A stretch of 63,571 nt of DNA, the filler included, from Reclinomonas americana ATCC 50394 (taxonomy: Eukaryota), in NCBI GenBank assembly GCA_048213135.1. It is 7 parts of 7 records of this genome, joined end to end, with 100 filler letters (N's around TTAATTAATTAA, not from the genome) between each part and the next. Parts side by side here need not be neighbours in the genome. Positions count along the whole stretch, not along the records: positions 1 to 27,380 come from AFZH01019576.1; positions 27,481 to 35,209 come from AFZH01019579.1; positions 35,310 to 46,301 come from AFZH01019581.1; positions 46,402 to 53,421 come from AFZH01019583.1; positions 53,522 to 60,341 come from AFZH01019584.1; 2 more parts are not named here. One strand, given 5' to 3'. Shown piece after piece: positions 1 through 57,630 of this stretch. The position numbers and the translations under genes are program-made. Within the stretch, counting starts at the first letter, position 1, and each line of letters starts with the position of its first letter. The notes under the pieces were generated by a model. It was not told the DNA's origin. It searched no databases and saw nothing but the letters and a program-made list of their open reading frames with translations.

Positions 1-3000
1 TTGCCGCGAGAGTTCATCTTTCCAATTGTCGACTTGGCCATGGGAGAACATCATGTTGTATTCCTCGCCGGTCAGTCACGTTCTCCATCCACTCTTTCTC
101 TCTTAGTGTGTGAGAGGCTTAATTCCGAGTGAGAGGCGCAGACTGTAAGCGCAACGTGTTTGGCATTGGGAATGGATCACGCGGGCAGCTTGGTGTCGGA
201 GGCTTCCCACTCGAGGCCTTTCAGGACGCACAAAGGTTCTCTCTTCTCTCCATTACCCTCTCCTTCTCCTTCTCTCTCTGATCGCTCCGTTGCCTCGCAG
301 AGCATTTCTGCTGGAGCGCATCCGCTTTGTCAAGGTGGCCTGCGGAACGCACCACACAGTGTGTCTGAGCGAGCTCGGTGGTGTGTACAGCTGCGGCGAC
401 AATAGCCGTGGTCAGCTTGGTCATGGGAATTTGGAGGATCTAGGAGTGCTGCGTCCGGTGACCGAGCTGCAGGAGCAGGAAGTGCGCATGACGGCGGTGT
501 ACTGTGGCCCCAAGTTCACCGTGGCTATTGATCGTGCGTCGCTGTCTGTGTGTGTGGCCCAAGTGTTGGTGTTGTCGCTGAAGAGGGTGGCTGGCGGCAG
601 AGAGCGGTATGTTGTGGGGCTTTGGCGACACCGAGTACCGGCATGTGTATGTGGAGGAGCAGACGCCGTCGCACTTGTTGTCGCGACCACGGCGACTCGA
701 TACGAGTCGCTACGTCGAGTCTCCGTTCCTGCAGGTGGCCTTCTCCGAGGCCATGGCCGTGGGTCTCACGGCCGACGGCAATGTGTGGGTGTGGGGCACG
801 AATTCCAAGGGAGGTGTGCTGCCACCCACCCGCTTGTCACAGTGCCGTGATCTGCAACTGGTGCAGCTCGTGGCTGGCGAGTCGCACTTTGTTGGATTGA
901 CCAGTTGTGTGTTCTTGTCGCGTCGCCCATGCTTGCCCTTGCACTCATTGACGACCCGCAGAATCCGGCACGGTGGTGGTGTGGGGCGAGAGCCAGCGTG
1001 GTGCTCTCGGGCTCGAATCGGATCCCGCAGTGCGGCATCCGTCGTACACCAAGCGACCGACGCCCACCGAGGTGGATGGCCTCCCTCACCCCGCCGCCAT
1101 GATTGGCGCCGGTGGCTCAGTCACCTGGGCGCTGCTCTGTGCGTCGCCGTGCCTGTTTAGTTGGCATTTCTTACACACACACACTAACTCCTGTACACAG
1201 CCGACGGAACGTTGTGGTGGTGGGGAGCAGCTGGCGACGGCACACCGTTTACGAATTTCGCCCCCGTGTCGGCCCGGCCACCGCTCGAGTTGTCACCGAT
1301 GGCCGACGTACAAGTGATGCGGACATACGGCTCGTGCATTCTGTTTGCTGTTGGTGCTCCGTTTTCATGTTCATGCACCGCTGCGCGTGATCCGTGGACA
1401 GAAATCAATGTTGCGCACTCGTGTGTGCTTGTGCCTCCCCCGCTGTGCGCTGCGTTGCTCACCGCCCTGCGTAGGATGAGAGTGCCGGAGGGCCGGGTGC
1501 GTCACTCGAAGCAACCCTCGAGCGACTCGGCCTGCCGGACCTGCGCAAGGCCGCAGGAGCCCCGCGCTGGCCCAACATGGAAGACGCTGATGATGACAGC
1601 TGGATGCTGCCACAGGTGCGCTCGATTCGCGTGTGTGTGTGTGTGTGTGTGACTCGGCCTCCACGCGCCACTCACGACTGTGTTGCAGGACGGCACGCCT
1701 GCACCAACTCGCCTGCAGCGCGAGGCACCGTCAGAACCCGTGGATACCGACATGGCCATGACGGAAGATGAGGCGGCGCAGTACCGTTCGCCACATGAGG
1801 TGCGTACCGTGCGTTCGCTGCGGCGACGAGATTGACATTTCCATTCACGAGCTGCTGTGGTGTGCGCGTAGTTTGCACGGCAGCAGCCGTACTCGGACGA
1901 CTTTATGGAGACCGATGACCCTTTTGCTCTCAAGCCGTTCCGATTGCACGAAGAGGGAGCGAGTGGCAGTGCTGCTGCCGCTGTTGGTGCAGGAGGACCT
2001 TTTGCCTCGGCCGCTGCACCGTCGCCGGAAATTCAGCAGCAGCTATTGCAATTACAACAGATGCAGATGCTGGCGGCGCAGTTCTTCCCCCGTGATGCTC
2101 ACGGCCAGCTGATGCCACCACCTGGTATGACGGCCGAGCAGTTCGCCTTGTTCTTCCGGCCACCGGTAATACACGATCCCGTCACCGGTGCACCAGTGCC
2201 ATTGTCGGCGGCCTCGATGCATTCACTCGGCGGCGCGGCCGCACAGTATCCGCAGGTACAGTTCTCCCATATTGTGTGCGGCTGTGATGAATGGATGCGT
2301 GACTTGCACTGTCACAGATGCTCGGCACACCCGGCTTGTCACCCATCCCGCCACACTCGGTTGCGTGCACCAACCGAGCGCATGTGTGTGTGTGTGTGTT
2401 TGCGCGCCACACAGTTTGATGCTCATCTCTCTTTCCACGCAGGCGGCATCGGCGGCATCGGCGGCATCTGCTGTCATGGCGTTGCAGGTTTGGCGCACGA
2501 AGAGTGTGGTGAGAAGCAAACATTGTCAGTCGCCTCACCACTCCGTATCGTAGCAATCGATGATGAACTCGGCCGCCAGTGGATCGCCCGCCGCTGCATT
2601 TGGTGCGATGGACTCGCCTGCCAGTCTCGCTGGCAGTATGGCGGCGGGTGCGACGGGCGCACTGGCACCGCTGCCGGGCGCTCCCTCAATGTCACCTGGA
2701 GCGACGTCGGCAGCCGCGAGTGGTGGCAGTGGCGGCGGTGCTCACGTGCCACCGATGGCGGCAGCGTCGTCACGACAGCATGCCATTGGCGGACACTTCA
2801 TGTCGCTGGCCAGCAGTCGAAGTATTCCGACCGAGGCTGCCGGCGCGTCGATGGCCGGCAGTATGCCCGGCTCGCCGCACTCGGTGGCCAGCGGACCCTT
2901 CAAACCCATCGAATTCGATCCCAACTCGTTGCAGAGTGCCGCCGATCAAGCGTGCGTCACAAACTCTCCTTCGCCTCTTCCTCACTTGCCATTCACACTC

Positions 3001-6000
3001 CGGCCGTATTTGCGTCACAGTGCCGCGGAAGTTGAACTTCGTCGACAGATGGAGGATCACGAAGCGCGCAAGCGCAAGCTTGAGGAGGCTGCAGATCTCG
3101 ACCGCACGGAACAGCAGCAACTGGAGGATCGAAAATGGAAGCGTGAGATGGAGGACATGCAACGAGAGAAGGAGCTCGCTCAGCGTAAGGCCGCTGCCGA
3201 AGAGGAGGCCGCGCGCGCCGATCAAGAACGCAATCGCCTGCGCGATGAGGAGGACAGGAAACTGGCTGCTGCGTTGGAGGAGAAGAAGCGCTTATTAGCT
3301 GCCGAAGATGCGCGGCTGGCCGACGAGTTGCGCAAGAAACGAGAGGCCGAAGAGCAGGCGCTGGCCGCTCGCACGGCGCAAATGAGTGCCGCCGAGGAGG
3401 CGCAACTGCGTGCAGAGATGGCGCGGCGGCGAGAGGAGGAAGACAGACTGGAGCGCGAGCGCCGTGAGCAGCTGAAACGGCAAGCCGAAGAAGAGGAGGC
3501 ACGAGTGCTTGCCGAGGCCGCTCGGCGCCGTGAGGAGGAGGATCGTGCAATCCGTGAAGAGGCGGAGCGGAAACGACAAGAGCTGTTGCAGCGTGAGAAG
3601 GCCGAGGAGGAGGAGCGGCGTCGTGTGCGGGCCGAGCAGGATGCGGCAGAGGAGGCGGAGCGTGCGGCGCGGAGACAGGCCGCCGATGGTGAGTGAGCCT
3701 GTGCCTTTTCGTGTCTTCTGTGTAATGTGTTGTTGACACCCGACGATTGTTTCAACTCACACAGAGGCGGAGGCAACACTGGCACGGGAGCGCGAAGAAA
3801 AGAGGCGATCAGAGGATGCGGCTCTGGAGGCCGAGCGCGCTCGCCGCAAGGCTGAACTTGAGGAGAACGAGCAGCGAACGGAGGAAGAGCGCGCAGCAAA
3901 GCGGGCGCTTGACGACAAAATGGAAGCGGAGGAGCGCGAGCGTCGCAAGAAGCAGCTGGAGGAGGAGGAGAAGGCTACACGCGCGAAACGCGAGAAGGAG
4001 CTGGAGGACGCGCGACTGCGTGAAATCGAGGAGCGGAAGCGGCGACAGGAGCAGGACGAGGCCGAACGAAAGGCCCGCGCCGAGTTGGAGGAGCTGGAGA
4101 AGGCGCAGCGGTCGCAAAAGGCCGAGGAAGATCGCCGTTGCGTTCATGCACCGCCTCGCAGGATGCGTTGCCTGCCTTGTTTACCTCTTGTTTTGCAGTG
4201 GAGAGAGAACGGGAGGAGCGTGCAGAGCGCGCGAGGCGTGTGGCGGAGGATGAGGAGCAGCGGCGAAAGTTACGCGAGGCCAAAGAGGAGAAAACTCGTC
4301 GACTGCTGGAGGGTGCACGCGAACCGTCCAAAGCTGTGGCCTCGATGGCACCACCACCTCCCGGATCGCTGTACATGTGGTTCTTTGGCGAAGACTTGTC
4401 GCTGTCACAGGATGCACGTGCACCTGCGTTGTGCGAGCCGAAACAGCTCATGGGTTCCGACTACAATGTGGTGTTGGCGGCGGCTGGTCCGCGGTTCATG
4501 GCGCTGGTGACGGACTTGGGTCACTTGCTGACGTGGGGACGCGGTGACTGCTCGTGTCTCGGACATGCCACCACGAATGACATTTTGGGACCGGCACGTG
4601 TGCAGTTTGATGGTGTTCCACCGCCGTCGCCACGTAGCTTGGAGCGCTCACAAGACGATGTGTTTGGCGACGAGAGGTTTGGAAAGCGCACGGTGGCGCC
4701 GGTGAACACTTCGCGCGTGCCGCATGTGATTGACGTATCGTGTGGATCGTCACACATTGTGTGCGTGGACAGTAACGGTTATGTGTACTCGTGGGGCAAG
4801 GGTGACAATGGTGAGCTTGGACTCGGGATTGGATCGCTGTTGGTGCCGACTCCGCGTCGAGTGACATTTCCCCCTCTGTCGGGTGTGCGACCGCGCATGA
4901 AAATGGTGGCATGCGGCTGGAATCACACTGTGGTGGTGTCAGATCGCAACGAGGTGTGGACATGGGGTCTCGGCAAGTTTGGTTCTCTCGGCAATGGTGC
5001 CACGCGCAATGCCTACGATCCGCTTCGTATCACTCTCTTTGAGGAGGGCGACGAGGGCGTGATTGTCGACGTTCGTTGCGGCCGCAACCACGTTCTTGTA
5101 CTCACCGGTTTGTCGGTGATCGTGGTCGTATATGGTCACAGCTTTCTCTGAAAAAAAGTGTGTACGTTTGGCAGAGGACGGCCGTGTGTTTGCCTGGGGT
5201 CACAATTCGAACGGCCAGATTGGCCTCTCCGTGCCACCAGGTGGCAATACGCCAGGCCCGCCAGACGGCAGTGGCACACCTGCGCCGCCACCATCTGCAG
5301 TGCGTCTCTCTCTTCGCATCCATGCACTTCGTGTTGACTGACCCTTTTGCACCCACTGCAGGCTGCTACCGCCGCCATGCCAGCGCAGTACAATTCACCC
5401 ATCCAGTTGCACTTTTTCCGCGGCAAGCACGTATGCGGCATTGCTGCGGGATCACAACACTCGGTCGCACTCAACGGTGGAGTGGGCATCGCTTCTCGCC
5501 CCTTGTCGTCGCTCTCTACTCACTGTCGAGTGTCTGCGCGCAGTGTATGGTGACGTGTTTGCGTGGGGCTACGGAAACAGCGGACGTCTTGGTCTCGGTG
5601 ACTCCAAGGACCGCAGCCAACCGACCCCTGTCCCCTTCCCGACTGGTGAGCGCGTCATTCGCGTGTCGTCGGGCCCAAGTGCATTCCACACACTGGCCGT
5701 GAGCGAGTCGGGCCGCGTGTACTCGTGGGGCAATGGTGCATTTGGGCAGCTGGGCCAAGGCGACAGTTTCAATGTCAAGATTCCCGCAGTCGTCGATGCG
5801 CTGCCAGCCAACATTCTCGTCAGCACCTTTGCGTGCGGACAGCGAGTGACGTTTGCGGCACAAAGTTGCGTGCCTTGCATTATCAAATCGACTCTCGTCT
5901 GCAGCTTACCGTGCAATGTACTTTGCAGGTCTGCATGGTGGTCAGCCGAATCCCGCCGCCTCCATGGACACGGGTCGCTCCACGCGACGCACATCGGCCT

Positions 6001-7665: not shown

Positions 7666-10600
7666 TTAAGTCATGTATTCATACACGACGGGGCCCGGGC
7701 CAGGCCTTCGCTGCAGGTACTCTTTGGTGATGAGCACTGCAATTTGCTCGACCACCTTGGTCGCCGCGGGCAAGAATTGTGATCGAAGCTGTGCAACCGG
7801 TCAAACCCTGCTCAACGCTGTTCAGCATCAACTCTCTGCACGCAACAGTTTCAATCACGGCGAGCACGAGTTCCTTGTGTTCCAACTGGCGTCGTGCTTT
7901 CATCACACGGACAATGGCGGCCTGGATCTGTGCGAGTAACAGCTATCGGTGAGTGCCTCTCACTAGTTTACCATGCATCGGTCGTAAACGCAACAATATA
8001 CTTGCGCCGCTCCTCAGTTCGCTTGTGTACCTCGGCGTTGGCCGAGTCGAAGGCAATCTTGCGCTTGATGGACAGCGTCTGCTTGTCCTTTTTCTTGGAG
8101 GTGTATGCCGAGTTGACAGCGAGGCGATCTTGCAAGCGATTCGCCTGCACCGGTGCCAGAAAACGGTCAGCATGCAGAGAGTGCGCAGCGACACCCGCGG
8201 CAACAAACCCCAGGTGCAGTGTCGACCACCACCAACAACTTGGCTCTGCACAGGAACTTGACGAACATGTTAAAGAGGGTGGCGTCCAACAGGCCACTCT
8301 CCCGAAACACATCGTCCGCACTGTGAACAGGAGGAGAAGGGTCATGAAAAGAGGTGAACTGACACACCAGTTTCTGATATGGGGAGACTCACAGCATCGG
8401 TACGTCCTCTTCGACGCGCTCAAACGGCAGCAGCACGCTCAACAGCTGCGGTGTCATGACAAAGACATATGTCTTGCGCATGTCCAGACGCGGCATGAAG
8501 GCGACTTCCACGGTGCCGCGAGACGACAAGAAGTGCAGCATGCGGCCATTGTGATTTGCCGCGTACATTCGGTCAAACTCATTTCTGCTGTTCTCCATCG
8601 GCACCGAGCACAGGACGCTGCCATGCGCGACAGATTAGCACAAAACGCAATCAGTGGCGACACATAAGTGGGAAGTGCGTACCGTGAGGTTTCCACCTCG
8701 CGTGGCCACAGCGAACGCTCAATGACAATGACGGTGAGATCGACCAGTGCACGACTCTGCAACACAACACGTCAGTGACGCAGGAGACGCAAGTCGCACG
8801 TCACCGCCCAGTACCTTGTCTTTCCGCATGAGTTTCTTCAGCTCGTCTCCTTCTGCCTTGCCGCGAACAACGTCGTGGAACAATTTGCGGATCTTGTCCG
8901 CGAAGCTGGGCCCAAAGGTCATCTGTTGTGCTCATGGGGTCAGCACCTCGTCACACACACACAAAAGGAGCATACGAAAACTGCGTACCGTCAGCTGGTT
9001 CACCACCATCGCCTCGTTGTCCATATTTGCGCCACGTTCCACGATGCGATCGGCCAGTTGTCGGCGATAAAACTCTTCAAACACATCGCGATCGTCGAGG
9101 TGCTCCAGAAACTGGAACGCGGCTGTCACACGTGGAACCACGATCTGTCGCACGCACGGGGATCAGAGACGAGGAAATAGGGAACAACCCCGGAGCAGCC
9201 ACGACCCAACCTCGTACGCTGGATCCTTCTCCCGCGTGCTCAGCTGCAAGTGCATGTAATGCGCCAGGTACTGCGAGGCGGCTGCGCTGAAGCGGCTCAA
9301 AATCTCCTTCAGCATCTCAAGTTCCAACTCTTCGTACTCTGGCCGGCGGAGCGCATCCTTGCACAGTACACGCTGATTCTCGTGGTATTCAAGCAATGCC
9401 TGTCGGCGATATCAGCGGTATGAGAAACTGGAATACCGTGTCCTTCGGGTCTCCGCTTGGTTACACGCACCTCCACAAAGGCTGTTGCTTGTGCTTCGCC
9501 TTCAGCGGCCTCCACGCGCGCCACCACTGCCGGACCCGCCACCTCTTCCAGGAACTGCTGGTACATCTGTTGGGCCATTGCAGCGCCGTTGGGAATACTG
9601 CGGTCCGGTGTGGGACAATGAAAAAATGAGCAGACGAGACTCGAACAACAGGCACGGCACGACATGCACGCACGTCTCCAGCAGACGGACGAGTTCACCG
9701 AGAGGACCGCACTGGCGAGTGTGCATGAGGAAGAAGATGCCCGTGTCCATCTGCGTGCGACGGTGAGTCGCAGTATCATTGGCACAGCACACGACGCACT
9801 GCGGCACCGCAACTGTCTTGAGTGTATCCAAGTGTTGCACCAGCAGCTCATCAATCAGGATGCGGAGCACTTTCGGTACGGTGTCTCTTTGGAAGCTGCG
9901 CGTGGCAAACGTGCTCTCGCTTCTCTGCAGCTTCGACACCCATTCCACGTACCGCACGGCATCGCAGCTGCCCAGCATCTCCTGCGACATGCGTCTGTAC
10001 GAATGCCGTGCATCCTCCAGCATTGGCGTCTGCAGCAGCAGCGAGCACGGAAACGGTGGTGTCAACACGCTGACCAGAACGCCACACAGCACTCGTCACG
10101 GACCTCGAACAGATCCGTGTAAAAACGCACTCCGACCTCGCGCAACATCAACAGCACCTGCTGAAACGAGGTTTGATCGGCGATCTCGCCATTGCGCACC
10201 GCCAGTACTCGAGCCAGCAGCTCCTGCGACAAGGTGCGAGCCAGCTCATCGCCCAACAGCAGCGTCTCAAAGTGATGCAACCCTGCGCATACATAAGCTC
10301 CCTGGCGATAGATCGATCTGCGACAGAGTCAGATAAGAATGCATGCGCACCGAGAGCATAGACGGGCCGACAATCGCGTTGCGTGCGAACCCACTGGTCA
10401 TCCTGCACACCAACCCATCCACATGTTCAGCGCCTGACAACAACCTCAATGCAACCCGGCTGTCTGTCGACCACTTTACCAAGTACAACAATCCGCCTCG
10501 CATGCGCGACAACGAGTCGCGATAGCGCTTCCACATCACTGCCAGTGGCTGCAAATAGCCCGCGCGCTCTGTGGCCAACGACCTCACCACGGCCTCCACT

Positions 10601-11034: not shown

Positions 11035-11655
11035 TCACGAGGTCGACTTGAGGAAGTTTCGTGAGCGAATAACGTCGCGATTGTCGAGCTTGAAGAAGCG
11101 CTTCTTCTGCTCCAGCGTCATTTGCTGGAACGAGATCGCCCGCAGCTCCTCCAGAGAGAGCGTCTGCGCCTCCACCAGCGCGCTCAGCCACTCGGGGTAC
11201 TCGTTGGTCGCCTTCACCGTTGGCACTGTGCGCGTCGAGGCAAAGTCGAGGCCTTTCACTGTGCAAAGAAGGAGAGTGAGAGTGGAGGGGGGAGGGAGAG
11301 GGAGAGAAGGGCAAAGGGGGAAGTGAGAGAGTGAGCAAAGAGGGAGACGAGGGAAGCGCACATTCATGCGTACTCTCACTCTCACGCAACTTGGTGCACC
11401 GACAGTCAACGTCTGTGCGCCTCCACTGCCTGCCGCCGCCTGCGAGCCTCCCGCCTCTCCTCCCGCTGCAGCCGCTGCTGCAGGCTTCTTTGCACCTGCG
11501 CCCTTGGGTGCGCCCTTGGCCGCGGGTGCTGCGGCCTTTGCAGCAGGCGCACCAGCAGCAGCAGCAGCAGGCGCCTTCCCGCCAGCTGCAGGCGCCGCGG
11601 CCTTCTCTGCGCGAGCGAGCACAGCAAGAACAGCGCGGCGCACGTGAGAGCTCAT
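11035..11655 (-). CDS. MRPL54: Mitochondrial ribosomal protein mL54 (L37/L54 family), 2 exons
   Basis: Presequence-like MSSHVRRAVLAVLAR, an A/K/G-rich linker, then KGLDFASTRTVPTVKATNEYPEWL and KRFFKLDNRDVIRSRNFLK, matching the EYPEWL and I..NF family motifs. Confidence 0.75.
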   Translation of the reverse strand: MSSHVRRAVLAVLARAEKAAAPAAGGKAPAAAAAGAPAAKAAAPAAKGAPKGAGAKKPAAAAAAGGEAGGSQAAAGSGGAQTLTVGAPSCVRVRVRMNVRFPRLPLCSLSHFPLCPSLPLPPPSTLTLLLCTVKGLDFASTRTVPTVKATNEYPEWLSALVEAQTLSLEELRAISFQQMTLEQKKRFFKLDNRDVIRSRNFLKSTS

Positions 11656-11705: not shown

Positions 11706-14700
11706 ATGGGCAAGGGCGCAAGTGCTGTTCCTGAGGTCTTCCAGCTCGCGGAGACTGGCCAAGTGGCGCAAGTCAGCAAGCGCGTCAAGCGGTTCAAGTG
11801 GACGTTGCGCATCCACATCTTCTCTCCTTTCTCACTCAGCCTCTCTCTGACTGCACCAACAGTGACTTGTGTGCGTTGCGCAATGGTGATGAGCGCACGT
11901 TGTTGCACGTGGCGGCCTTGCATGGGCACGTTCCGTTGCTGGAGTTTCTCATGGAGTGGCATCGTGGTGGTGATCGGAATGCGCTGCTCAATGCGTGCGA
12001 TCGAACGGGGACGACGGCGGTGGCGGCCGCGGTGTGTGCTGGACACGCTGCTGCTGTTCGCTGCTTGCTGCAGGCTGGTGCTGATCCATTCGGTTTGTTG
12101 TCGCCTTCGTCTTTGTGCTCGTTCTGCACGCTCGTTCTCTGATTGCTGTTGTCAGTGGCCGACTTGTCGGAGATGAACTGCTGGCACTGGGCGGCGTACA
12201 CGGGCGCCGCTGACGTGGTGCAGGAGTTGACTCGTGCAGCTGGGCAATCGCCGTTGGCGCTGGAGCGGCTGTCGTTGGCGTCGCGTGATGGGCTCAGTGC
12301 GTTGCATGTGGCGGCCAAGCAGGGCAGTGTGCACTTTCTGGAGGTGCTGTGCGAGGCGTTTGGGGAGGGTGTGAACTTGCGCGATCGGGCGTTTCATAAG
12401 ATGATGACACCCGTCATGTTTGCGGCGTGCCACGGTCGCACACCGTTTCTGCATCGGCTGGTCGAGTTGACGAGGCGGAGAGCCGGCGATGAGGGAGTGC
12501 GGTGAGCGACTTCCACCCGAGACGTGTAATTGTCGCGATGTTGCCTTTTATCCTCACGACAGCCGTACTGCAGGCAAATGTTGTGCGACGAGGATCAGGA
12601 TGGATGGACGGCGTTTCTGTGGGCGTGTGGCGCCAACGAGTTGGAGACGGCGCGCGCAGTGGTGGCCGCCGCGGTGCAAGCCGGCATGTCGGTGGAGAGT
12701 CTGGTGCGTCACAAGGACGGCTCGGGAGCCACGGCCTTGCACTGGTGTTGCGAGCACGGCAACGTGCCGTGCACCATGTACATTTGTCGTGAGCTGTGCG
12801 AGACGATCACCAGTGAGCGGAATGCACTGGCTGACGCTGCGGCCGCTGCTGCTGCTGCTGCCGAGGATGCGGAAGGAGAGAAGGACGGGGAGGATGACGA
12901 CGACGACGACGACGACCATGTCACGAGTGAGCAGGTACGACGCCGTGTGCTGAATGCAGTCGACGTGGATGGCGACACGCCACTTCATGTCGCGTGCAAG
13001 AAGGTTGCGTCGATGACAGGCACAACAAGACTGCTTCTCTGTTTCGTCGCTCACACGAGACGCCATGCAGTGTCAACTTCTCTCTATCCGCGTACTGCTC
13101 TCCTTTGAGGCGGTGCTGGTGGACTCTACCAATGTGGACTCGTCGACACCGCTCATGGCGGCGGCCGAGAAAGGTCTGCCTCGCTGTGCGGTCTCGCTTT
13201 GCTGGACCTGTCTGGTTGAAATAATGTGCCCCATGCACGTAGGATTCTGGGAGGGCTGTCAGCTGCTGCTTGCCAGCGGTCGGTGCTCGCCGTGTCTCGG
13301 AAACGGAGATGGCGAAACTGCGCTGCACATGGCCACACTGGGTGCCGTCACGCAGCAGACGCGACTCGATGCGTCGCCCATCAATCCACTGAAGACCGTG
13401 GCGCTCTTGCTGCGACACGGCGCCGATCCGAACTTGCAAGACTTTGAAGGATTCACGCCGCTGCATTGGTGTGCCTGATTGCGCGCGTGTGCAAGGGAAG
13501 TATTGAGGCTGACAATCCTGTCGAATACAGGGCCGTGTCGATGGACCAGGATGAAATGTGCTCCTCGCTGTGCATGGCCGGCGCGTCGCCATTCATCACC
13601 GATGCTCTCGGTGACACGCCGCTGCACAAGGCCTGCCTCTTTGGTCATTTGTCGTGCGCGCGTGTGATTATGCACCTGCTGGTGATCTCACCACATGCGC
13701 CGCAAAGGGTGCGCGCGTACTTTTTGGTTCAACACATGTCCCTGCTGCTGACCTATTCCCTCTCGCGCGCGCACACAGTTACACGCCGATGTGAAGGAAG
13801 CTGGCATCACGTGTGTGCGCGGCGCAGTGTCGGACTCGGAACAGCCAGTGTCGCTGTCGGTTGGGAGTCACGAGCTCGCGGCATTGTGTGTGGGCGAGGT
13901 GGAGGAAGCAGATGTGCGTCGACGTGTGCTGTGTCGCGCCACGCACGGAGCCTCGCTGGCACGCTGGCTGCCGAGTGTGCTGCCGGCAGTGTGCTTGCTG
14001 CATGATATCGTGAGGCAGCCGAATCAGGAGGGCAAGTCACCGCTGCACATGTGCTCCTTCAAGGTACGGACACTGGTGTTTGGTTTTCGTTGTCATGTAC
14101 TCGTGATGGGCTGAGACTCTCTCGTCACACACAGGCCGGTAAAGATGAGTGGCGATATGGACACCGACTGCGTCCGCGCGAAGTCGAAGATGATGACATG
14201 CCGAAGCTGCACGTCATGTAGTTGTGTGCACGAGCATGAGCACAATTGTTATGTTTGCACAGGCCCTGACCTTTCTATGTTCAGCGAGTTGATGCAAGAG
14301 GTCATTCTCCGCTCCTTTGATGCCGTGTGTGTGCTGCCCGACGGCTGCGGACACATGTACGAGTACGCGTTGCAAGAGGACGGAGAACGGCGGCTGGCCG
14401 TGGATGCCGTGCCGAAGAACTTGACCGGCGTGCCTCACTTGCACGCTCCCTGGTAAGGCATGCGTGCTGGCAGTGAGCGTTCACACCGCCGTGCTCACCT
14501 CTTCTTGCGTGCAATGGTCGTCAGGTCGGTGGTGCTGCCTCTTGTGCTCGCCCGCAAGTCACCAGTGCCTCGACCGTCGTCGGCGGCGGCTGTCGCCGGT
14601 GTGCATTACTTTGGCATTGAGGACGTTGGTGGCTTCTTGGAGGCCTTTGTGTTCGCCTGCTATCTGGATTGCGGACTGCCGCTAGTGTGCGACGCAGCCG

Positions 14701-27740: not shown

Positions 27741-27753
27741 GTCTCCTTCCGCA

Positions 27754-42604: not shown

Positions 42605-45600
42605 ATGCAGAGTGGCAAGGGCAAGGCGTACAGGGCGGCTGTGCCACTAAAGCCACGCACTCCTGCGCAACGGTATGTGTGCGTTAAAGAGAGAGTGCGT
42701 GTGTGTCTACTCACGCTGAGTGTGTGTGCCACAGTGCGGCGCTGTCACAAGGTGTGCTCGATGAGGACGGTGGATCGACGGCATCATCAGCCAATGGCGG
42801 TGTGCCGATGGTCAATTCGATCGCCTCTGCGCAAAAGGTGTGTGTGTGTGTAAGAGAGAGAGAGAGATCATTCATTGATCGCTGCTCACCTGCGTTGTTC
42901 TCAGTCGCAGTCATCTGCCGCTGGGCCGCCTGTTGTCGCTGCTGATGTGCTATCGCGTCAGGTACTCACTCATTCGCGTACTTGTGTGTTGGAGCGTGAG
43001 TGTTCATTCGTGTGTGTGTGCTGCGACAGCTGCTCGGCGAGCAGGCCATGGGCGCCACGAGGCAAAAGATCAATGTGGACAGCCCGGTGAAGAAGGTCAT
43101 TGGGGACATGGTGGCCGCGCGACGACGTGAGTGTGGCAAGCGATGTTGTTTCTTCCCCGTTCGTCGTTGACTAACTCGCGCAGAGATGGCTGGCGATGCG
43201 GATGACCACGGTGGCGTGCCAGCGGTGTGTGTCTCTCTCTCCCTCTCTATGCTGCTCCCAGTCTCGTGCTGATTGATCATCGCTGTTCGAACGCAGCCGC
43301 GACACGCCTGGGGCGATACCGATTCACCGTCGATGATGCAGGCGGTGCCGCCGATCCGCACGCCGGCTGATCGCCACGCCATCCACACGCCGTTGGCGTC
43401 GGCACCGGCCGTGTCGACCCCGTCCACTGCCAATGTGGCAAAGACGCTCGATTTCTTCCAGGGTGCGTGTGTGTGTGTGTTTGTACGAATGTGTATTGCT
43501 GCTGCTGACAAGCGTCTGCCAAACCCACAGAGACGCCCTCGAACGGAGCCCACGCTGCGCAACGAAAGGCCAAGACCGACGCACTCAGCAGTCCGGAGCG
43601 AGTGGCTGCTGCCGAGTTCCCTTCGTTTGCCGCTGGTGCGCCAGAGCCGACTGAAAAGACAACGCCGCGCAGCGAATCGGCCAAGAGGAAACGAGGTGCG
43701 CGTTCATCAGAGGGTGGATCGTGTCCACGGATTGTATATTCATCTCCCTCGTACTGTGGCAGCCGTCAAGCATGTGCAGTCGCGTTTCATGAGCGGCGCC
43801 AAGACGCCAACACAAGGCGAAAAGGAGGCCGCTCGGCCCACACGGCCCACCTCGGCTCCACGATCTCGACCGACGTCGGCGGCCCCGACTCCCGAACAAC
43901 ATCGGTGTGTGTGTCTCTCCGGTGTTATTTGGATCCATCCCTTGCATCTGCTCATGACACGCTGCGATAATCAGGAGACCAATATCAGCTCAGCGTGCAC
44001 GTCCGTCATCGTTGCGTTTGCGGACGTAGAAGATGGAAGAAGGGTCATCGGTCGTCGTTAACTGTGTCTCGTTCGCAGTGCGGCGCCACCAGCCACAGCA
44101 GCGCCATCGTCTGCATTGGCGCAGGCGCGCAAGGGCACTGCCGCACTGAATACCATCCGCCAGCTGGAACGACAGCAGGAGATGCTGGAGGCCAAGGCCC
44201 GAGCGGAGCAAGAGTTCTTTGAGAGGTGCGTGCCAGAATGCCGATCTGACTTCTGTTTTCTTTATGAGGTGCCTCACGTCGTATGACAGTCGAGCACAAG
44301 CTGCCGCCGCTGCCGCAGAGGGAGACAGCGTGCCCGGTTCCACAACAAAGAACGGTGTGCCTGCTGACACATTTTTTGTTCGACACCATGATCGTGACCA
44401 ACTTGTGTTGTGCTTCCAGGAGCACGCATCACAAGACATTTCAATCCACCGGGAACTGCGCCCAGTGAAGAATCAAGTTGCGTTTGTCTCTTTCCCAATG
44501 CACGTACATCTGTCGTCGCTCATCGCATCGTGCAGCGCCTGGGCGAATCAAAATGCGAGTGGTCTCCTCCAAGTTCCAACAGCCGGCCGCCGCCGCCGCA
44601 TCACAGACGCCGCGCGACAGCGCCAAGAAGCCGACACCACGCGACCGACCCACTACACCGACGAATCGACGACCTGCTGCGCCAGCCACCAGCTCGGCCG
44701 TCAAGGGTCGTCAGCCAGTGGTGACGGCGGGTGGAGCGGGAACTGCCGCACCATCATCAGCGAGTCGACCAGGTAAAGAGGGGGGCAGAGGGAGAACATC
44801 TCCATCACGCATCTCACTCACCCGCCTCGCCACAGTCACCATTACACGCGGCGAATTGCCGTCGGCCGCCGCTCTGTTGCGCCCCTTTCCATCACTCTGA
44901 TTTTTGTGATGATCATGTGTGTCTCACATATTACCGCGCAGTGCTGGTCGTGGAGCACCGCCGAAAAAAGCCGCACCACCCTCAGTTGCCGCGCACCCCG
45001 GCGGCAACCTGCCAAGTGGCATGACTCCGGCGATGCATGCGGCTCTTTTGCAGACACGCCTGCTGCACTGGCACTTTGTCAATGCACGGGCGGCGCAGGC
45101 GTTTGAGGCACAGGAGGATCGGGCGATGGTCTGTGTCTATGCCTGGATTTGTATGTGAGCGTTTGTGTGCTCACCACAGGCTGGCGCAGGAGGCACTGTA
45201 CAGCATGTGGTTGTTGATTGATCAACGGCGGTCCGACTTGCAGCAGCATGTGTTGACACTGGAGAAGGAGAAGCACATTGTGGCGCTGGAGGACTCGCTG
45301 CGGCATGTGCGTCGGCATTCTCTCGTTTGATCTTGCGGTATCTGCGTCATCATCCGTGATGTGACGTTGCTTTTGGGGGGCGCAGCACGAGTACCTGGCC
45401 ACTGCCGAGGCCGGCACCATCATGGATCAGTACGCCGATGCACACAGCAGGTTATCGCAGGCACTGACGGGCACCACTCATCGTCTCCCGTTGCATCGGT
45501 GAGACAACTCATTCTCCCTCAATAATCCCGCGTCGCTCACCTCCACCACAGCGTGACGGTCGACGAGACGCAGCTGCTGCAGAGTCTCACCAATGTGGCC

Positions 45601-47809: not shown

Positions 47810-50800
47810 ATGGGCGTCGGTGAGTTGGCTCTTGTTTATATGCATGTGTGTGTGTGTGCGTGTGTTCTCCGCAGCAGCGCTCACGGCCGTTCCCAGCACG
47901 AACGCGACTCCCTTTGGCCACTCTGGCCCTATTGTTGCTGGTGGCTCTCGTCACTCTTCCTGTGCTTGTGCTCTCTGCACGCACCAAGAGGTACAAGTTT
48001 TTCCTGCGCAAAAGAGTGTGTGTCTGTGTGCATGCTCATCGTCATCTCGCTAGTCACCACCAGCAACTAAGAGGAGATTCGCCACCTCTCGGTGCGTTCG
48101 TGGTGTGGCAAGAACCAGTTGTATTGTTGAATCGCCTCACTCTCCCCGTGTGTATTACAGACGCGGATCTTGAAAGCGCATTGTCGGAGGTGTTTGCAAG
48201 CGCACAGGCGGTGGACATTGGCTCAACACCAACGATGTCGCTGCAGGTGTGAAAGTCCCTCCCTCTCTCACACGCACACACTCAGCTGACGCTGTGTGAG
48301 GCAGATCATTGTGAATCGCGAGGAGGCGGCGTTTGTGTTGCGCAACGTGGCCACCAAGGCCTTCAGTTGGAAGTGGTATGTGAGTTCGTCGCGCGCCCTC
48401 TGCTCTCTGTGACACTCAGCGTTCCTTCTGCGCGAGGCAGGTTTGGCGCACTGAATGTGTTCGAGAGTGTGGGCCAGACGGCAGCCGGCATGCCGCTGGT
48501 CACCGCTGTCAGTGGTTCGTGCGAGCCACTGCCGGAGGGTGACGAGAAGAGCTGGGAGATGTCCATGATGGCTCGCGGTTGCGCCATTCAGCTCGTCACA
48601 CCGCAAGTTTCCCTCACCAGTTCTCTCGAGTGGCTGTCGGTGCGTTGGTGCGAGGTGAAGGACGGCAATCGTCATCACAAGTCGGCTGACAACTCGCTCC
48701 AGATCTTCAACTTTGTGAACAGTGTGCTGGCGACAGTGGAAAAGAAACGCAGCTCTCTGGCCAGTCATTCACAGCGATTGAGCAATCCTCCCAGTGTGCA
48801 AAGTTGCGTCGTTGTCGATTGTGCTCAACGTGGACGGCGTGGTGACCCCCTGCGTCAGATATCGTGGAGTACCAGAACGGCAGCCTCGACCAAGTTGTGC
48901 AAGATAAGAGTATTAAGAGGCCGCAGCGGCAGATGCTGGCCAAAGCCAGGGCGCGAACCAGCGGCGCTCCACAGGACCAGCCGTTGGCAGTACAGGTTTG
49001 GTTGCATTGTGTTCCAGCGTGGCCTGCCTTCTTCGTTTCATGTGTGTGTGTGTCGTGCAGCACCGAATCGCAATGTCTGCGAGCTTTGAGCCATACGTCT
49101 TCTTCCCGTGGGTGATGTGCTCGTCGACCACAGGCGCCGTGAAATGCGCCGATCGTGAGTTTCCGACTGGCGGTGGTGAAGTCGGCGTTCTCCTTCGCAA
49201 TGCCCAATTCCAGGTGCGTGCCGCCATATTCCGCATGCAGAGCAGCAGCTCAACAACTCAGTTGTGATTTTGTGCACCAGTTTTCGTTTCCCATGCAGCT
49301 GGTGCAACTCGTGGACCAAGCGTGAGTACCATCGAGCAGTCTTCAAATAGTCGCCTGGGCACTGATTTTGCGACTTCCGTTGCAGAGAGGTGGCCAGTGC
49401 GTGGTGGCATCAGGTGCCGGAGAGTGTCTCGCCAACGAAGGTCTGTGTTGGAACGTTGTCTCATCTTCTCCACCGATAAATGACCCGTCACATGTGTGTG
49501 CTGTGGTGCAGATGGCACTGTTTCATGGCGACATCCCGACCGCGTTCCTGGATAATCCGACAAGCAGTCAAAGTGACGCGAACCTTCGCAGTGCAGCGGT
49601 GAAGCGGCTCCTCGCCAGCATGGGGTTGGCCGATAACTTGGCGAGTGACAAAGTTGCGTTTCGTCATCATGTCACGAGTGCCACTCCACAACTACTTACT
49701 CTGCATCGCGTCTCCAGGGTGTGGGTCAAAATTACCTCTGGTTATATCGTTGCCTTCTCTCATGTGCAGTACAACCTCTCGTGCAGACCTGCAAGCTCTG
49801 TGGGTGGCCCTCGGTGCTTCGGCCTGCAACCTGGGTGAGCATATGTGTTTTCCCCATTGCCACTGAGACACTTAGCTGAGACACTCTGCTGCGCCTAGCG
49901 TTCCACATCCACAACTACAAGTACCTGCGCAGCAGTGCCCTGGGAAAACAATTGCTTTTTGACTGGCAAGCGTCGTACAAGAAGGGCGACTGGCTGAAGA
50001 TCGGCATCGCACAAGGCGACCCAACCGCTCAGTTCCTGCTCAGCGTGCGCTTCCGTGATCTGCTGACGGAGGTGGCGGCCAAGTCGGCCGAGCTGAGTAC
50101 ACTGGCGCCCGGTCCGAATAGCGCCATGTGGACGGCGCTGACGCGCGTCAGCAAGAGATATCTCGGCGGTCTCGTCGGTGGCAACACCAAGCTCGACGAG
50201 GCCGACCTGGAGCGTATTGCCGAGGCATTCGTGGGCAGCAGCACGAGTTGCGTTTTTCACTCGCTGCGTTGCACGTGCATGTGTATTTGTGTCGCTCACG
50301 ATTTATTACGTGCGCACAGACGGGATGCACACGTTGGTGGTTTCGGAGATGAAAAAGACAAACGAGGTTGGTGTTGCATTTTCGTTTTCCGCGTTTTTCT
50401 CAGCTGACGCACTGTGTGGTGGCCGTGGTGCTGCGTGTAGGGCGCCGCCGACATGCTGCAAAAGATGTTGAACTTCCGTGGCCATTTGCGGCCACTGGTC
50501 AAGGGCATTTTGGCGGAGGTGTTGCCGCAGGTGTTTGGCGGCACCGAGAGTTGAGTGCCACGGAGTGCTTGTGGTGGTGGTGGTGGTAGTGGTGGTGGTG
50601 GTGGTGGCTCATGCGAGGCGCACAGGTGATACGGCCAAGATGTTCCGCACCACGACCGAGGAGTCGGCGGTGATGAAACTCGACGGCAAGCTGGCGGTCA
50701 TGGTCGTGGACCAACAGTTGCGCGATGTGTGCTTTTTTTCGTGTGTGTGCGGTGTATTCTCACTGGCTCGTGTGGCAGGCCCTCTGCGGACTTGGTGAAC

Positions 50801-50976
50801 AGGGGCCAGAAGCGGGAGAACGTGTACCTGGAGGCAAAGGTAATGGCCGACATGCAGCGAAGATATCAACTGCTGGCCATGGGCAAGGCGGTGGAATGAA
50901 TGAGGAAGTACGGCGAATCTTGGGTAAATACCCAGCAGTCGAACAAAGGGCTGGTCGCCAGGCGTGGGATTCGTAG
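47810..50976 (+). CDS. Large secreted or membrane-anchored orphan, possibly BPI/LBP (TULIP)-like; start unresolved
   Basis: Hydrophobic N-terminal LPLATLALLLLVALVTLPVLVLSA and about 15 GT-AG introns joining coding-like exons with alternating beta strands and long helices. The fold is a guess. Confidence 0.45.
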
Positions 50977-53421: not shown

Positions 53422-53521
53422 NNNNNNNNNNNNNNNNNNNNNNNNNNNNNNNNNNNNNNNNNNNNTTAATTAATTAANNNNNNNNNNNNNNNNNNNNNNN
53501 NNNNNNNNNNNNNNNNNNNNN
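53422..53521. other. Artificial contig-join spacer
   Basis: N-TTAATTAATTAA-N. Confidence 0.97.
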
Positions 53522-53585: not shown

Positions 53586-53651
53586 CCCCTCTCCCTCCAC
53601 AACATCTCACTTTCACACACGCACACACACGCACACTCACAGTCAACGTCC

Positions 53652-56446
53652 ATGACGGATGGAACGAGGCAGCCGCAGCAGTGGCCGCCGAGCACCCTCA
53701 CCGACCTCCAGAGACTCACTCCTACACAGCGTCACCGTCGCCTCCACCGAAAGCGAGTCAGGGCGGCGTTGCGTTTCTTGTCCACACCCTTTGCATCATG
53801 ACTCTCCTCCCAAATCATCGTCTCTCTTTTCACTACAGCTCCCTGCTGCTGCTGCTGCTGCTGCGGAAGGGCGACGAGCAGTGCTGCTGGCACCGGGTCA
53901 GGCAGATGGCGCACTACTGGATGTGTACGATCGCGACGCGGTGTTTAGTGTCGCCCCCGCCGCCGCACCGGCACCACCCGCCATCTCAGCCGGTGAGCGA
54001 ACCTTGCATTCATGTGTCTTGTTGCTTCAATGATCCACTCATGCCGGCCTGGCAAGTGCGTGAGGTGCAGTACCAGGTGCTGCTGTCGGAGCAGCAAAAG
54101 ATCATTAGCCGCTTTAAGGCCGACAACGAGAAGCTGAAGAGCAGCAACTTTGATCTCGAGCGCGAGCTGCGCGACCTCGAGCTGGAGCTGGAGGAGGCGC
54201 AGAATGCCAACGCTGGCAATGTGGAGTTTGTGCGCAACATGGAGACGTGGATGGTGAACAATCGCGGCGTGGAGCGCAACGAGGAGGGGTTCCGCAAACG
54301 GAGGCGGCAACAAAAGGCTCTGGCACTCGGCGCTCGCTTCCAGGACGACGAAGATCTCGACAAGGTACGCTCCCCCTCCCTGTTGTCGATGACCTTGATT
54401 GCCCCTCTCATCGCTCCACAGACCCTCGTGGTGAAAGTCTCGTGCTGGAAGGGCTTCAAGGCCGGCATGCGCGGTCTGTGGGGCAAAATCAAGCCCGTGC
54501 TCGTGCCGTTTGCTGCCGATGTGGAATTCCTGTACGCTCGTTACGGCCGCGCCGTCGGCACCTACTTTCAGTTCCTCCGCTGGTTGGCGCTGACGGCCCT
54601 GTACTTGGGTCTCGCGGTCGGCATCTTCACCACACTGCACGCGCTGTCGCAGTCCGGGTTCACATGGGGCGACTCGGTGACGCCGCACTTCCTGCTGTAC
54701 TCGTCGTACTCGTCGGATGAGACGCAGGCGTACGCTCTCTTACTGGTCACGGTGATTGTGTACAATGTCGGTATGTTTATTCAACGTGCCGTGCAAGAGG
54801 AGCGCGTACGCCGCGAGGGCGAACTGGAGCGGGCCGAACAGCGCCGCATGCAGTACAGTCGACTGACGCTGAATCTGTGGGACCATACGGTGCGGTCGGC
54901 GCGCGCAGCCGAGGACTTTAGGCTGTCGATCGCCGAGGCCATTAATATTCTCGAAGCCGATCGCACGCGTGAGCAACGCATGAAGGGGCGCTCAGCGACA
55001 GAGCGTACCGGCCTGATTATGCGCCGTGTTACTGGCTCGTTCCTGGTGGCCGTGTTGGTGGCCGGCACGTGGCTCATTCTCATCTACATGAACGTGGCGA
55101 CGGACACGCTGCAAGCGCGGTTCACGGGTGTGCTGAACACGATTGCCAAGCTGGCCATTCCGTTCTCTGTCGTGCTGCTGACCGGCATCATGCCGGAGGT
55201 GGTGGCTGCCATTACGCGCTTCGAAAAGTGGGACAACCCGGAGACGCACCTCAAGTGGCTGATTGGCCGTTTCTTCCTCATCAAGTACTTTACGTTCTTG
55301 CTACTGTTGCTGCAAAACTACCAGCTCCTGACGGGCTTCACCATTCAACTGTTTGGCATCACTTCCTCGGTGACAACCACGCGCTCGTGTAAGGCCGACG
55401 CTGTCGGTGTCAATTTCACCAACCTGCTGGTGGTGGCCTGGGTCAGCAACAAGATCATGTGGGGCATCAAACTGGGCCTCTATTACCTCAAGCGTGCCAT
55501 CAAGTGCGTCTCTATATTTTCTCGTTTGCCTGTCGCCGAGATCTGTTTTTCACACCCGTGCACTGCAGATCGACGCCAGTGCCGAAAAAGGAGTTTGCCG
55601 TGGCCTTCCAGATCATCAACGTGCTCAACATTCAGTCGTACATCTGGGTCGTCATTCCGTTTGCGCCGAGTGTGTGCATTCTCGGCGCAGTGATGCTCCT
55701 CCTCGACTTCAAGTTCCAAAAGTTCCTCATGCAAGGGCTACTCAAGAAGCCGTCGGGTGCGTGCTGGTCATGTGTGGCGAATTTGGAGGCCAGAGAACCT
55801 TATCCTTCTTTTCACCACAGATGTGTTTGCGGCCTCCGGCACCGGTCCGTTCTTCATGCTGCTGCACTCGGTGGCCGGCGTCACCACCATTGCCACGTAC
55901 ATTTGGTTCCTCAACGTGCACATCAACACGGACTGCGGTCCACTCACGACCACCACGTTTGCTGCGGTGTGTTTGTGCTTGTCCGCGCGTATGTGTGTGT
56001 GTGTGTGTGTGTGTGTTCTTGCTGCCGCAGAATAGCGCGTCCTCACGGATCGCCAACACACAGTATCTGCAATCGTCGGCCTCCGACAACAACATCACTC
56101 GCGTGCTCTTCCAAGTGGCCACCTCGCCCATTTTCTTGTGGGCACTGGTGGCTGTGTTCTTCACCGCCTTTGCCAAGCGAGCGTTCTTCATGTCGGCACT
56201 GAAGGGCTACCTGGCGCACCAGCGCAAGCGACACAAGCGCGAGCAGCAGGATTTGCTGTTGAAGCTGAAAAAGGTCGGACTGCGCATGCACGTGACTGGT
56301 TGCTGCGGCTGTTGTTGCTCACGTCGTCACCCCACAGGCCCGCGACCTCATCGCCCGGTTGCAGGACAACGACGATCAAGGCTCGCCGACCGGCTCACCA
56401 CGGCGCGGAGGTGGTGGCCATCAAAGAACCGAGAGTCGTTGCGTGA
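53652..56446 (+). CDS. Transmembrane channel-like (TMC) family protein
   Basis: RYGRAVGTYFQFLRWL, LWDHTV, ITRFEKWD, CKADAVG (at the CWET.VG position), EFAVAFQIINVLNIQSYIWVVIPFAP, DCGPL, multiple TM helices. Confidence 0.85.
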
Positions 56447-56660
56447 TCAATCCCTTTCTTGTTGTCGCTCTCCACTGTTGCTCATTCGCTGCCCCAGAGA
56501 TCGACACGGAAAGATGATGATTAATACAAAGGAGGTTAACAGTTTGTTTTTACGCCCTGCAGCATCGCACCGCGCGGAACACTCGTACAAAAGAGCCATC
56601 AATAATGTCCCATTCGCTCACTTGTCCGCTTCATCTTTCTATCTGTCTTCTGCTGTCACG

Positions 56661-57630
56661 ATGGGGTGCAAGAGCTCATCAGCCAAAGTCGCTGAGCCAC
56701 GGTTCGCCTCCGTGAGCCAAACACCATCGGTGAATGATCAAGTTGCGTGCCCACACACTCGCAAAAGAGTGCCCGTTACACACTCTCTCTCGCATGATCA
56801 TTCACTCTTGCGCACACGCAGAGTTCTCAAGCACGCAAGACAAGTGCAGCTGCAGAGAGCCTCAACTCACTCATCGCGCGACTCGACAGCGCAGTTGATG
56901 GGTCGCATGGTGCGTCACATGCACACAGTGTCTCTCTCTCTCTTTCTCTCTGTCTTTGTGCCTTCCTCATGTGTGCGCATGCAGGTGTGAGCGACTCAGA
57001 GCTGAAGCGTGCCAAGGACCTCATCCGCGCCTTTTGTGGGACTCCGCGCTACATTGCCTTGCGCGACACCTCCTTCTCCAAGGCCGACACGAACAAGTCG
57101 GGGGCGGTCGATGCCCGCGAGATTCACGTGTTCCTCGTGGACTTGTATCAGAGTTGAGTGAGTTGTAGGTGTGTCTGTTGAGGAGCAGTGTCTTATGCAG
57201 CGAGAGCAGGGCATGTTGCGGATGTTCCCGAGTGGCGACGTCACCATTTTCACCCTCCGACGCGCGCGGATGCAGACAAGCTGGTGAAGGGTGAGCGAGC
57301 TGAAGAGCAAGAGTGGGCTACTGTGCATCAGTGAGCTGAGCTGTGACTGTGCAGCACTCGACAAGGACCACAATGGGTCGATTGATATCACCGAATACGA
57401 CGGTGAAGCGGCTGCTTTTCGTGCCTGTGCATGTGCTTGTCTCACTGTTTTGTTACTGGCGTGCAGTGCTGTTCCAACACTCGCTGCTGCACACGCTCTG
57501 TCTGCAGCTGAAGACAGGCAAGTGCACCGTGGACGATCTGGAACGAGCACTGGCTCCGGCGCCTGATGCTGCTGCCGTCGCTGCCGCTGCATCTGTACCC
57601 ACCGAAGCAGCTGAAGCAGCTTCTGATTGA
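56661..57630 (+). CDS. N-acylated EF-hand calcium-binding protein
   Basis: MGCKSS (myristoylation/palmitoylation-like); EF loops DTNKSGAVDARE and DKDHNGSIDITE. Confidence 0.8.

Follow-up and report, generated by a model that had tools for sequence, protein, structure and literature searches.

GTTGCGT is the commonest predicted 5' splice site in 63,571 bases of Reclinomonas americana DNA and may be read one base out of register

The introns examined here lie in a stretch of 63,571 bases from Reclinomonas americana ATCC 50394 (the window), and more of them are predicted to begin with GTTGCGT than with any other heptamer. An initial annotation of the window had pointed out that, besides introns with ordinary 5' splice sites (donors) such as GTGCGT and GTGAGT, there are many candidate introns that start with the same kind of string carrying one extra T. 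Based on introns predicted from the DNA, GTTGCG sites are real and abundant intron starts and constitute a separate class with its own flank rules. The introns that they open appear to be ordinary introns of the major GT-AG type, and the reading that we prefer, which we regard as evenly balanced between right and wrong, is that their 5' splice site is read one base out of register.

Prediction of introns

Introns were predicted by exon chaining with a parser (the full parser) in which coding sequence is scored by a 3-periodic Markov model and introns by a prior on their length, an acceptor matrix of 17 positions and a first-order donor model that is capped, with a minimum exon length of 15 nucleotides (nt) and with donors restricted to GT. 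In a second, donor-blind version the donor model was switched off and any GT was permitted as donor. The full parser returned 190 introns in 27 gene models, of which 189 are free of N (the full set, made up of 26 introns with a GTTGCG donor, referred to below as the class, and 163 others), and the donor-blind parser returned 199. The 148 N-free introns that were predicted identically by both are called the common set. Two other kinds of parser were discarded, one based on codon usage alone, which gave too few genes or ragged borders, and one with unrestrained re-training of long signal models, which gave approximately 500 introns. The set that was retained certainly includes some false introns among those with other donors.

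The lengths of the 189 predicted introns fall in a very narrow range, mostly 55–80 bases with a median of 65–66, and their density is approximately 4.8 per kb of coding sequence. The signal at the 3' splice site is unusually strict ([GA]CAG; position −3 is C in 88 % of the introns and position −4 is a purine in 90 %), and a branch-like word, mostly CTCAC or CTCAT but also CTGAC, lies approximately 18–19 bases from the 3' end; C, and not a purine, precedes the presumed branch A.

Frequency of GTTGCG donors

All 29 sites listed in the initial annotation were found to carry the motif ascribed to them, namely GTTGCGT at 21, GTTGCGC at three, GTTGCGA at one, and the variants GTTGAGT at 57153 and, on the minus strand, 21167, GTTGTGT at 904 and GTTTCGT at 7041. 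Over both strands the window holds 33 copies of GTTGCGT, compared to 8.2 expected from base composition. When the donor-blind parser was used, GTTGCG was the commonest donor hexamer (19 of 199), followed by GTGCGT (17), GTGTGT (15) and GTGAGT (10), whereas it makes up only 88 of the 8,247 GT sites in the window (1.07 %; binomial p=8.9e-13). In the common set it starts 16 of the 148 introns (10.8 %), where the product of the single-position frequencies leads to an expectation of 0.47. Hence, as had been proposed, GTTGCG is a separate class, and a degenerate consensus whose positions vary independently does not account for it. The earlier rough estimate that such donors account for 10–15 % of introns agrees with this proportion and with that in the full set (26/189, 13.8 %), in which GTTGCGT is the commonest heptamer (21/189, 11 %) and twice as frequent as the next one.

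Eighteen of the 25 GTTGCG sites listed originally are donors in the full parser, and two more (1410 and 37456) are used by the donor-blind parser only. As for the four variants, both parsers take 904 and 57153 as donors, only the full parser takes 7041, and 21167 is a donor in neither run. Nine donors were found in addition to those originally listed: GTTGCG at 9813 and 20693 on the minus strand and at 11804, 29231, 33249, 44876, 50717 and 56438 on the plus strand, and GTTGAGT at 50550 on the plus strand.

A sceptic might hold that the gene models are at fault, the true donors being nearby ordinary GTs, or that the motif is simply a coding or compositional word. Nine of the 26 class donors are indeed not used by the donor-blind parser, which in the six cases inspected takes another GT 5–24 nt away, five of them in phase, and five of the listed sites (29055, 49653, 53768, 16918 and 35318, the last of which abuts a run of N) are used by neither parser. 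However, 16 class introns were recovered with no donor model at all, and in the genes for CPSF3, a cullin and an RCC1-repeat protein the junctions are fixed by homology or by repeat spacing (see below). Use of the motif also depends strictly on a T at +7, as predicted introns start at 21 of the 33 copies of GTTGCGT but at only six of 36 copies of GTTGCGC, one of nine of GTTGCGG and none of ten of GTTGCGA, and only three of the 33 GTTGCGT copies are in antisense orientation relative to a gene. We consider an artefact of this sort very unlikely.

The 29 class and variant introns are listed here with the support for each; the GT at the start and the AG at the end were required by the parser itself.

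904..961, plus strand: GTTGTGT intron (variant) in the RCC1-repeat gene; both parsers, identical
2360..2442, plus strand: GTTGCGT intron; full parser only, the donor-blind parser uses an in-phase GT 24 nt downstream
4137..4198, plus strand: GTTGCGT intron; both parsers
5865..5928, plus strand: GTTGCGT intron; both parsers
7789..7846, minus strand: GTTGCGT intron in the cullin gene; both parsers and homology
7928..7994, minus strand: GTTGCGT intron in the cullin gene; both parsers, and homology on the downstream side only
9751..9813, minus strand: GTTGCGG intron in the cullin gene; both parsers, not listed originally
11259..11390, minus strand: GTTGCGT intron in the mitochondrial ribosomal L37-like gene; full parser only, Pfam L37 match starts at the downstream exon
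11804..11862, plus strand: GTTGCGC intron in the ankyrin gene; both parsers
13004..13070, plus strand: GTTGCGT intron in the ankyrin gene; donor used by both parsers, whose acceptor (13109) is probably wrong
20635..20693, minus strand: GTTGCGT intron in the EGF-repeat gene; full parser only
25045..25100, minus strand: GTTGCGT intron; both parsers
25619..25688, minus strand: GTTGCGT intron; full parser only, the donor-blind parser uses an in-phase GT 9 nt downstream
26894..26955, minus strand: GTTGCGT intron in the PH-domain gene; both parsers and PH profile
27803..27870, plus strand: GTTGCGT intron in the SMPDL-like gene; both parsers
29231..29290, plus strand: GTTGCGT intron in the SMPDL-like gene; both parsers
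31995..32069, plus strand: GTTGCGT intron; both parsers
33249..33312, plus strand: GTTGCGT intron; full parser only
40328..40399, minus strand: GTTGCGT intron in the CPSF3 gene; both parsers and homology
41632..41699, minus strand: GTTGCGC intron in the CPSF3 gene; both parsers and homology
44477..44535, plus strand: GTTGCGT intron; full parser only, the donor-blind parser uses an in-phase GT 12 nt upstream
44876..44941, plus strand: GTTGCGC intron; both parsers
48803..48858, plus strand: GTTGCGT intron; full parser only, the donor-blind parser uses an in-phase GT 9 nt upstream
50247..50319, plus strand: GTTGCGT intron; both parsers
50550..50625, plus strand: GTTGAGT intron (variant); both parsers
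50717..50778, plus strand: GTTGCGC intron; both parsers
56438..56562, plus strand: GTTGCGT intron in the TMC-domain gene; full parser only
56742..56821, plus strand: GTTGCGT intron in the TMC-domain gene; full parser only, the donor-blind parser uses a GT 5 nt downstream
57153..57275, plus strand: GTTGAGT intron (variant) with an uncertain acceptor; donor used by both parsers and supported by frame

Bases flanking the class donors

The class differs from the remaining donors most clearly in the last base of the exon. A G is found at −1 in only three of the 26 class introns, compared to 114 of the 163 others (Fisher p=1.7e-8), and in the common set in none of 16 compared to 91 of 132 (p=5e-8). 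The initial annotation had counted G at three and A at 11 of 25 sites, and our values of three and ten of 26 are practically the same. Because a G does stand at −1 in 22 of the 29 donors outside the class that have T at +3 (such as GTTTGT), its loss from the class is not an effect of the T at +3 as such. The overall composition of −1 in the class (A 10, C 6, G 3, T 7) resembles that of −2 in the GTNNGT donors (A 21, C 19, G 16, T 20).

On the intron side, the inserted base, as counted in donors that can be written GT+N+RNGT, is T in 25 cases, A in one, C in none and G in three, and position +7 in the 28 GTTGCG donors predicted by either parser is T in 21, C in six, G in one and A in none. The T at +7 is needed approximately as strongly as the T at +6 is in GTGCGN donors. 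At the variable base of the motif the class has C in 21 of 25 cases and the GTG[N]GT donors have it in 21 of 48 (p=0.001; in the common set 11/15 compared to 15/38, p=0.035), and GTTGAGT is approximately ten times rarer than GTTGCGT (two compared to 21). In the GTG[N]GT donors G is absent from +4 (0/48) and the order there (C 21, T 15, A 12) is the reverse of the order in human. This could be a sign that the recognising RNA has a base other than a uridine or pseudouridine opposite +4.

In length, acceptor and branch-like motif the class introns resemble the rest. Their median length is 65 nt compared to 66 nt, [GA]CAG acceptors are present in 23 of 26 compared to 132 of 163, and a YTNAY branch-like motif is found in 20 of 26 compared to 122 of 163, at a median distance of −18 compared to −19, CTCAC being the commonest form in both. 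Beyond the motif they share no sequence, as ungapped identity over +8 to +35 is much the same whether introns are compared inside the class (0.269), inside the rest (0.265) or across the two groups (0.261), and blastn comparison of the introns with one another matched only simple GT repeats. A sharply defined 5' motif common to many introns could be the mark of a separate intron type, either the U12 type or a mobile 'introner' whose copies bring the motif with them. However, the shared length, acceptor and branch-like motif together with the lack of shared sequence argue against both a minor-spliceosome type and introners, and GTTGCGT is unlike the donor consensus of U12-type introns, so that we hold a separate type to be extremely improbable. 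The predicted class introns have instead the properties of U2-type GT-AG introns, namely GT and AG ends, a branch-like motif, and restoration of frame and colinearity at the junctions that were checked by homology.

Position of the cut

The initial annotation had claimed that conserved protein motifs force the cut to lie before the GT of the class motif, and this was reproduced for the CPSF3 and cullin genes. The nine predicted exons of the CPSF3 gene (42126 to 39400) were joined and the product was scored against a profile built from 60 of 120 homologues. The spliced protein scores 956 bits over profile positions 11–685 of 688 with no gap at any of the eight junctions, which include VTH/FHMDH at 41699 (GTTGCGC) and TKTV/ILVHG at 40399 (GTTGCGT). 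Pfam coordinates of single exons concur, with Beta-Casp positions 12–86 followed by 88–120 in the next exon, and exon 40400–40642 ends at position 34 of the 63 in the RMMBL profile, which corresponds to residue 80 of its 81. The unspliced CPSF3 open reading frame, when used as query, gave one match only.

In the cullin gene, residues 1–24 of the 27 encoded by exon 7847–7927 align to residues 27–50 of 1iuy_A, and the next exon resumes the alignment with its residue 1 opposite residue 54. As this alignment is ungapped, the protein is colinear over the GTTGCGT intron at 7846. The exon downstream of the intron at 7994 begins exactly at IQAAIVR and aligns to cullin chains from its residue 1. Its upstream neighbour (7995–8144) has no match in the PDB and this junction is therefore fixed from one side only. 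PDB searches with the other cullin exons returned scores of only 13–27 bits, and those with the SMPDL-like exons 27483–27800 and 27872–27988, which flank the intron at 27803, returned nothing useful.

Repeat and domain periods provide further information. Across the intron at 904 the His-to-Trp spacing of the RCC1 repeat is 13, as it is in three uninterrupted repeats of the same protein, and the RCC1 profile begins at residue 2 of the downstream exon. For the intron at 13004, acceptor 13070 yields an ankyrin repeat of 34 residues and acceptor 13109 one of 21, and the upstream piece ends at position 11–12 of the Ank profile, with the next repeat starting from residue 23 downstream (E-values are weak for these matches). 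The repeat period thus weakly supports a cut before the GT at 13004, and acceptor 13109 is probably wrong. The exon upstream of the intron at 26955 ends at position 35 of the PH profile, and the third exon holds positions 78–103.

It had also been noted that, at 57153, use of the GTGAGT lying just downstream would leave an in-frame TGA, and this withstood examination; the preceding exon ends in phase 1, which would bring the TGA into the exon, and the frame is backed by an EF-hand match. A 15-base exon (57276–57290) is predicted between two EF-hand loops and gives a loop-to-loop spacing of 29 residues (57153–57402), while approximately 36 residues is typical of EF-hand pairs. Hence, the 3' end of this GTTGAGT intron has probably been mis-set.

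Register of 5' splice site recognition

GGTGCGT, which covers positions −1 to +6, is the most frequent ordinary donor (14 cases in the full set), and it differs at one position from the class motif GTTGCGT written from +1 to +7. According to the reading that we prefer, the string recognised in usual donors would be G|GTGCGT and in the class |GTTGCGT, so that the first G of the intron would take the place of the last G of the exon, the T at +2 would be the sole mismatch and TGCGT would retain its usual partners. The factor that recognises GGTGCGT, whatever it is, would sit one base deeper in the intron when it binds the class, while the cut would still be made before the only available GT, a choice presumably fixed later by U6, U5 and Prp8. 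The partner is presumably the 5' end of U1 in a shifted register, and one spliceosome would serve both classes. Such a shift predicts the class-specific loss of G from −1, and the flanks are as it requires, since −1 has lost its G and positions +3 to +7 copy the usual +2 to +6.

A register in which one U is bulged does not predict that loss. In such a register G+1 and U+2 would pair as usual, the U at +3 (or +2) would bulge and GCGU would pair as +3 to +6. The extra base is nearly always a T beside a T, which would permit a degenerate bulge, and this register has been validated in human, where 68 sites are predicted (PMC4856993). However, the G at −1 would then pair with C9 of U1 and should remain at approximately 70 %, as it does in other donors with T at +3 but not in the class. 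The predicted duplex is also worse than that in the shifted register (+2.2 kcal/mol, see below), and we think a bulge quite unlikely.

Several observations weigh against the shifted register itself. When duplex energies were computed using ViennaRNA with the standard 11-nt 5' end of U1, in a protein-free model, GUUGCGU gave +0.1 kcal/mol in the shifted register and +2.2 kcal/mol in the bulged one, and the best duplexes of the 21 GTTGCGT sites averaged −1.3 kcal/mol, compared to −5.1 for GTGCGT, −6.0 for GTGTGT and −9.6 for GTGAGT. For only one of the 21 sites was the best duplex in the shifted register. Hence, stable and superior pairing to standard U1 in that register, which is one of the features that define sites of the kind described by Roca and Krainer, was not found, though GTTGAGT does reach −4.3 kcal/mol shifted and −2.2 kcal/mol bulged. 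A simple shift further predicts that GTTGAGT and GTTGTGT occur in approximately the proportions of GTGAGT and GTGTGT, and the excess of C in the class is at odds with this. The pairing of U6 would likewise have to shift or be dispensable. Finally, most of the introns come from a purpose-built parser that makes errors (neighbouring genes are merged, and there is the acceptor of the intron at 13004), and 41 of the 190 introns in the full model were not exactly reproduced in the donor-blind run. The earlier proposal that U1 pairs one nucleotide downstream is thus upheld in part: the loss of G from −1 is specific to the class, but a standard U1 would gain almost nothing from the shifted duplex. 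Because of this weak duplex, and because the excess at +5 is of C and not of a compensating A, we rate the shift no higher than even.

The weak pairing to standard U1, the excess of C and the absence of G at +4 would all follow if the pairing partner had a G opposite the variable position. This leads to the idea of an altered or second U1 that departs from the standard ACUUACCUG 5' end, in line with the suggestion in the initial annotation of a modified U1/U6 recognition system or variant small nuclear RNAs. Two forms can be envisaged. In the first, the only U1 would have G and C in place of the two pseudouridines (5' ...ACGCACC...) and would pair perfectly with GGUGCGU and, with one mismatch, with GUUGCGU in the shifted register. 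In the second, a separate U1 variant (5' ...ACGCAAC...) would pair perfectly with GUUGCGU. The preference for C seen at the variable position runs counter to that expected from compensation on standard U1, the base counts at +4 may fit a G opposite that position better than a pseudouridine, the class is the weakest binder of all the donor groups when the standard end is used, and a hypothetical GC-adapted 5' end brings the class to −7.8 kcal/mol in the shifted register and GTGCGT to −12.8 kcal/mol. However, U1C and other proteins have no place in the energy model, the DNA sampled amounts to 63 kb, the 5' end of U1 is among the most conserved RNA sequences, and GC-rich genomes can prefer GTGCGT with a normal U1. 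Though we judge it unlikely that U1 is altered or duplicated, the idea is a plausible one, arising from 63 kb of DNA and a protein-free energy model, and it is live and testable. The broader possibility that this lineage has changed the RNA that reads its 5' splice sites, so that the dialects G|GUGCGU and |GUUGCGU would both be routine and the GU, rather than the register of U1, would determine the cut, is given a similarly low probability.

Comparison with known 5' splice sites

Shifted and bulged U1 registers have been proven for rare human sites (PMC4856993). The shifted (+1) register at atypical human 5' splice sites was reported by Roca and Krainer in 2009 (Nat Struct Mol Biol 16:176), as cited in PMC4856993 and in a review (PMC9311317). 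The class resembles the human shifted register in that GU and one extra base precede a U1-matching string one position downstream, the cut is at the GU and the role of −1 is lost. It differs in that the human sites are rare and reliant on long downstream pairing, whereas in the window 21 of the 189 predicted introns open with one and the same heptamer, GUUGCGU, more than with any other. The human model site ACA/GUCAAGUAUA has a predicted energy of −6.5 kcal/mol and measured energies of −6.8 and −7.6 kcal/mol (PMC4856993), while the class has C where pairing to standard U1 needs A and is predicted at only +0.1 kcal/mol.

The human bulge +2/+3 register (Roca et al. 2012, Genes Dev; Tan et al. 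2016, PMC4856993), in which GUU is followed by the normal +3 to +6 string, is similar in arrangement. Among 201,541 human 5' splice sites, the 68 predicted to use it were reduced to 54 after curation, and all validated noncanonical U1 registers together account for 1.5 % (PMC4856993). Here, in contrast, the class makes up 11–14 % of introns and has lost the −1 G rule, contrary to a bulge register.

The ordinary donors in the window (G|GTGCGT, GTGAGT and GTGTGT), the short introns and the strong 3' signal recall a pattern reportedly described by Irimia and Roy in 2008, of GTGCGT-type donors in GC-rich genomes with short introns, such as Ostreococcus. That pattern lacks a class that is one base longer, whereas the window has a diversity of donors, with the longer form more frequent than any single ordinary heptamer. 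A literature search for GTTGCGT, GTTGCG or GUUGCG as a splice motif revealed nothing relevant in titles and the opening parts of abstracts, a scope that a sequence logo within a genome paper would escape. Any novelty would lie in routine use, as a register known as a rare exception in human is here predicted for the commonest donor heptamer.

The window and its genes

The window is gene-dense, eukaryotic and very rich in short introns, with approximately 58 % G+C. It consists of seven pieces of approximately 27.4, 7.7, 11.0, 7.0, 6.8, 1.9 and 1.1 kb, separated by spacers that carry a stop in all six frames and look like contig joins. Hence, pieces that lie side by side in the window may be apart in the genome, and no judgement is possible on introns that run across a spacer, such as that at 35318.

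27381–27480, 35210–35309, 46302–46401, 53422–53521, 60342–60441 and 62358–62457: six identical spacers of 100 bases each (44 N, TTAATTAATTAA, 44 N)

The genes include those for a ciliary B9 protein, a TMC-domain protein, a protein with teneurin-like EGF repeats, mitochondrial ribosomal L37, a divergent cullin, CPSF3 and an SMPDL3-like phosphodiesterase (identified by a match to SMPDL3A), and there is a weak match to the C-terminus of codanin-1. This content (B9, TMC, codanin-like, teneurin-like EGF and mitochondrial L37) suggests a flagellated eukaryote with mitochondria. The CPSF3 gene (39400–42126, minus strand) is complete and well conserved but, in the protein collections searched, no homologue exceeds approximately 53 % identity over its length, the nearest being at approximately 50 %; the two top matches in the CPSF3 search were rejected as close relatives because their high scores arise only from internal duplications. 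The cullin (7666–10884, minus strand) is very divergent, scoring 13–27 bits per exon against human cullins. Judging from the divergence of these two proteins, the organism appears to have no close relative that has been sequenced and annotated.

One gene with several class donors (47810–50899, plus strand) has 16 exons, with class donors at 48803, 50247 and 50717, a GTTGAGT donor at 50550 and an extra GTTGCGT at 49653. Its product contains no Pfam domain and had no detectable homologue among 1.84 billion representatives, against which exon 49901–50245 produced only four weak, multi-stretch matches and no orthologue.

An Rfam scan of the window found no family at its gathering score, and no small nuclear RNA either there or at E<=1. 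The matches at E<=1 are to microRNA, small nucleolar RNA, sRNA and untranslated region (UTR) element families only, most of them stacked on three stretches (28343–28900, 29640–29900 and 31049–31148) and far below gathering scores. The stacked matches are mostly to plant microRNA families, together with the Hsp83 3'UTR and snoR125, and these stretches contain long runs of TC/GA and GT repeats. They were rejected as RNA genes and are taken to be repeat artefacts inside or beside the SMPDL-like gene.

Implications

If a genome does use such a site as its commonest donor, the register between U1 and the cut would not be fixed in evolution, and the organism would provide a natural system for studying what sets the cut, U1 or U6, U5 and Prp8. 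Gene finders that score −3 to +6 as independent positions will misplace approximately one intron in nine here. The requirement for C at +5, as yet unexplained, suggests a change in U1 that can be tested.

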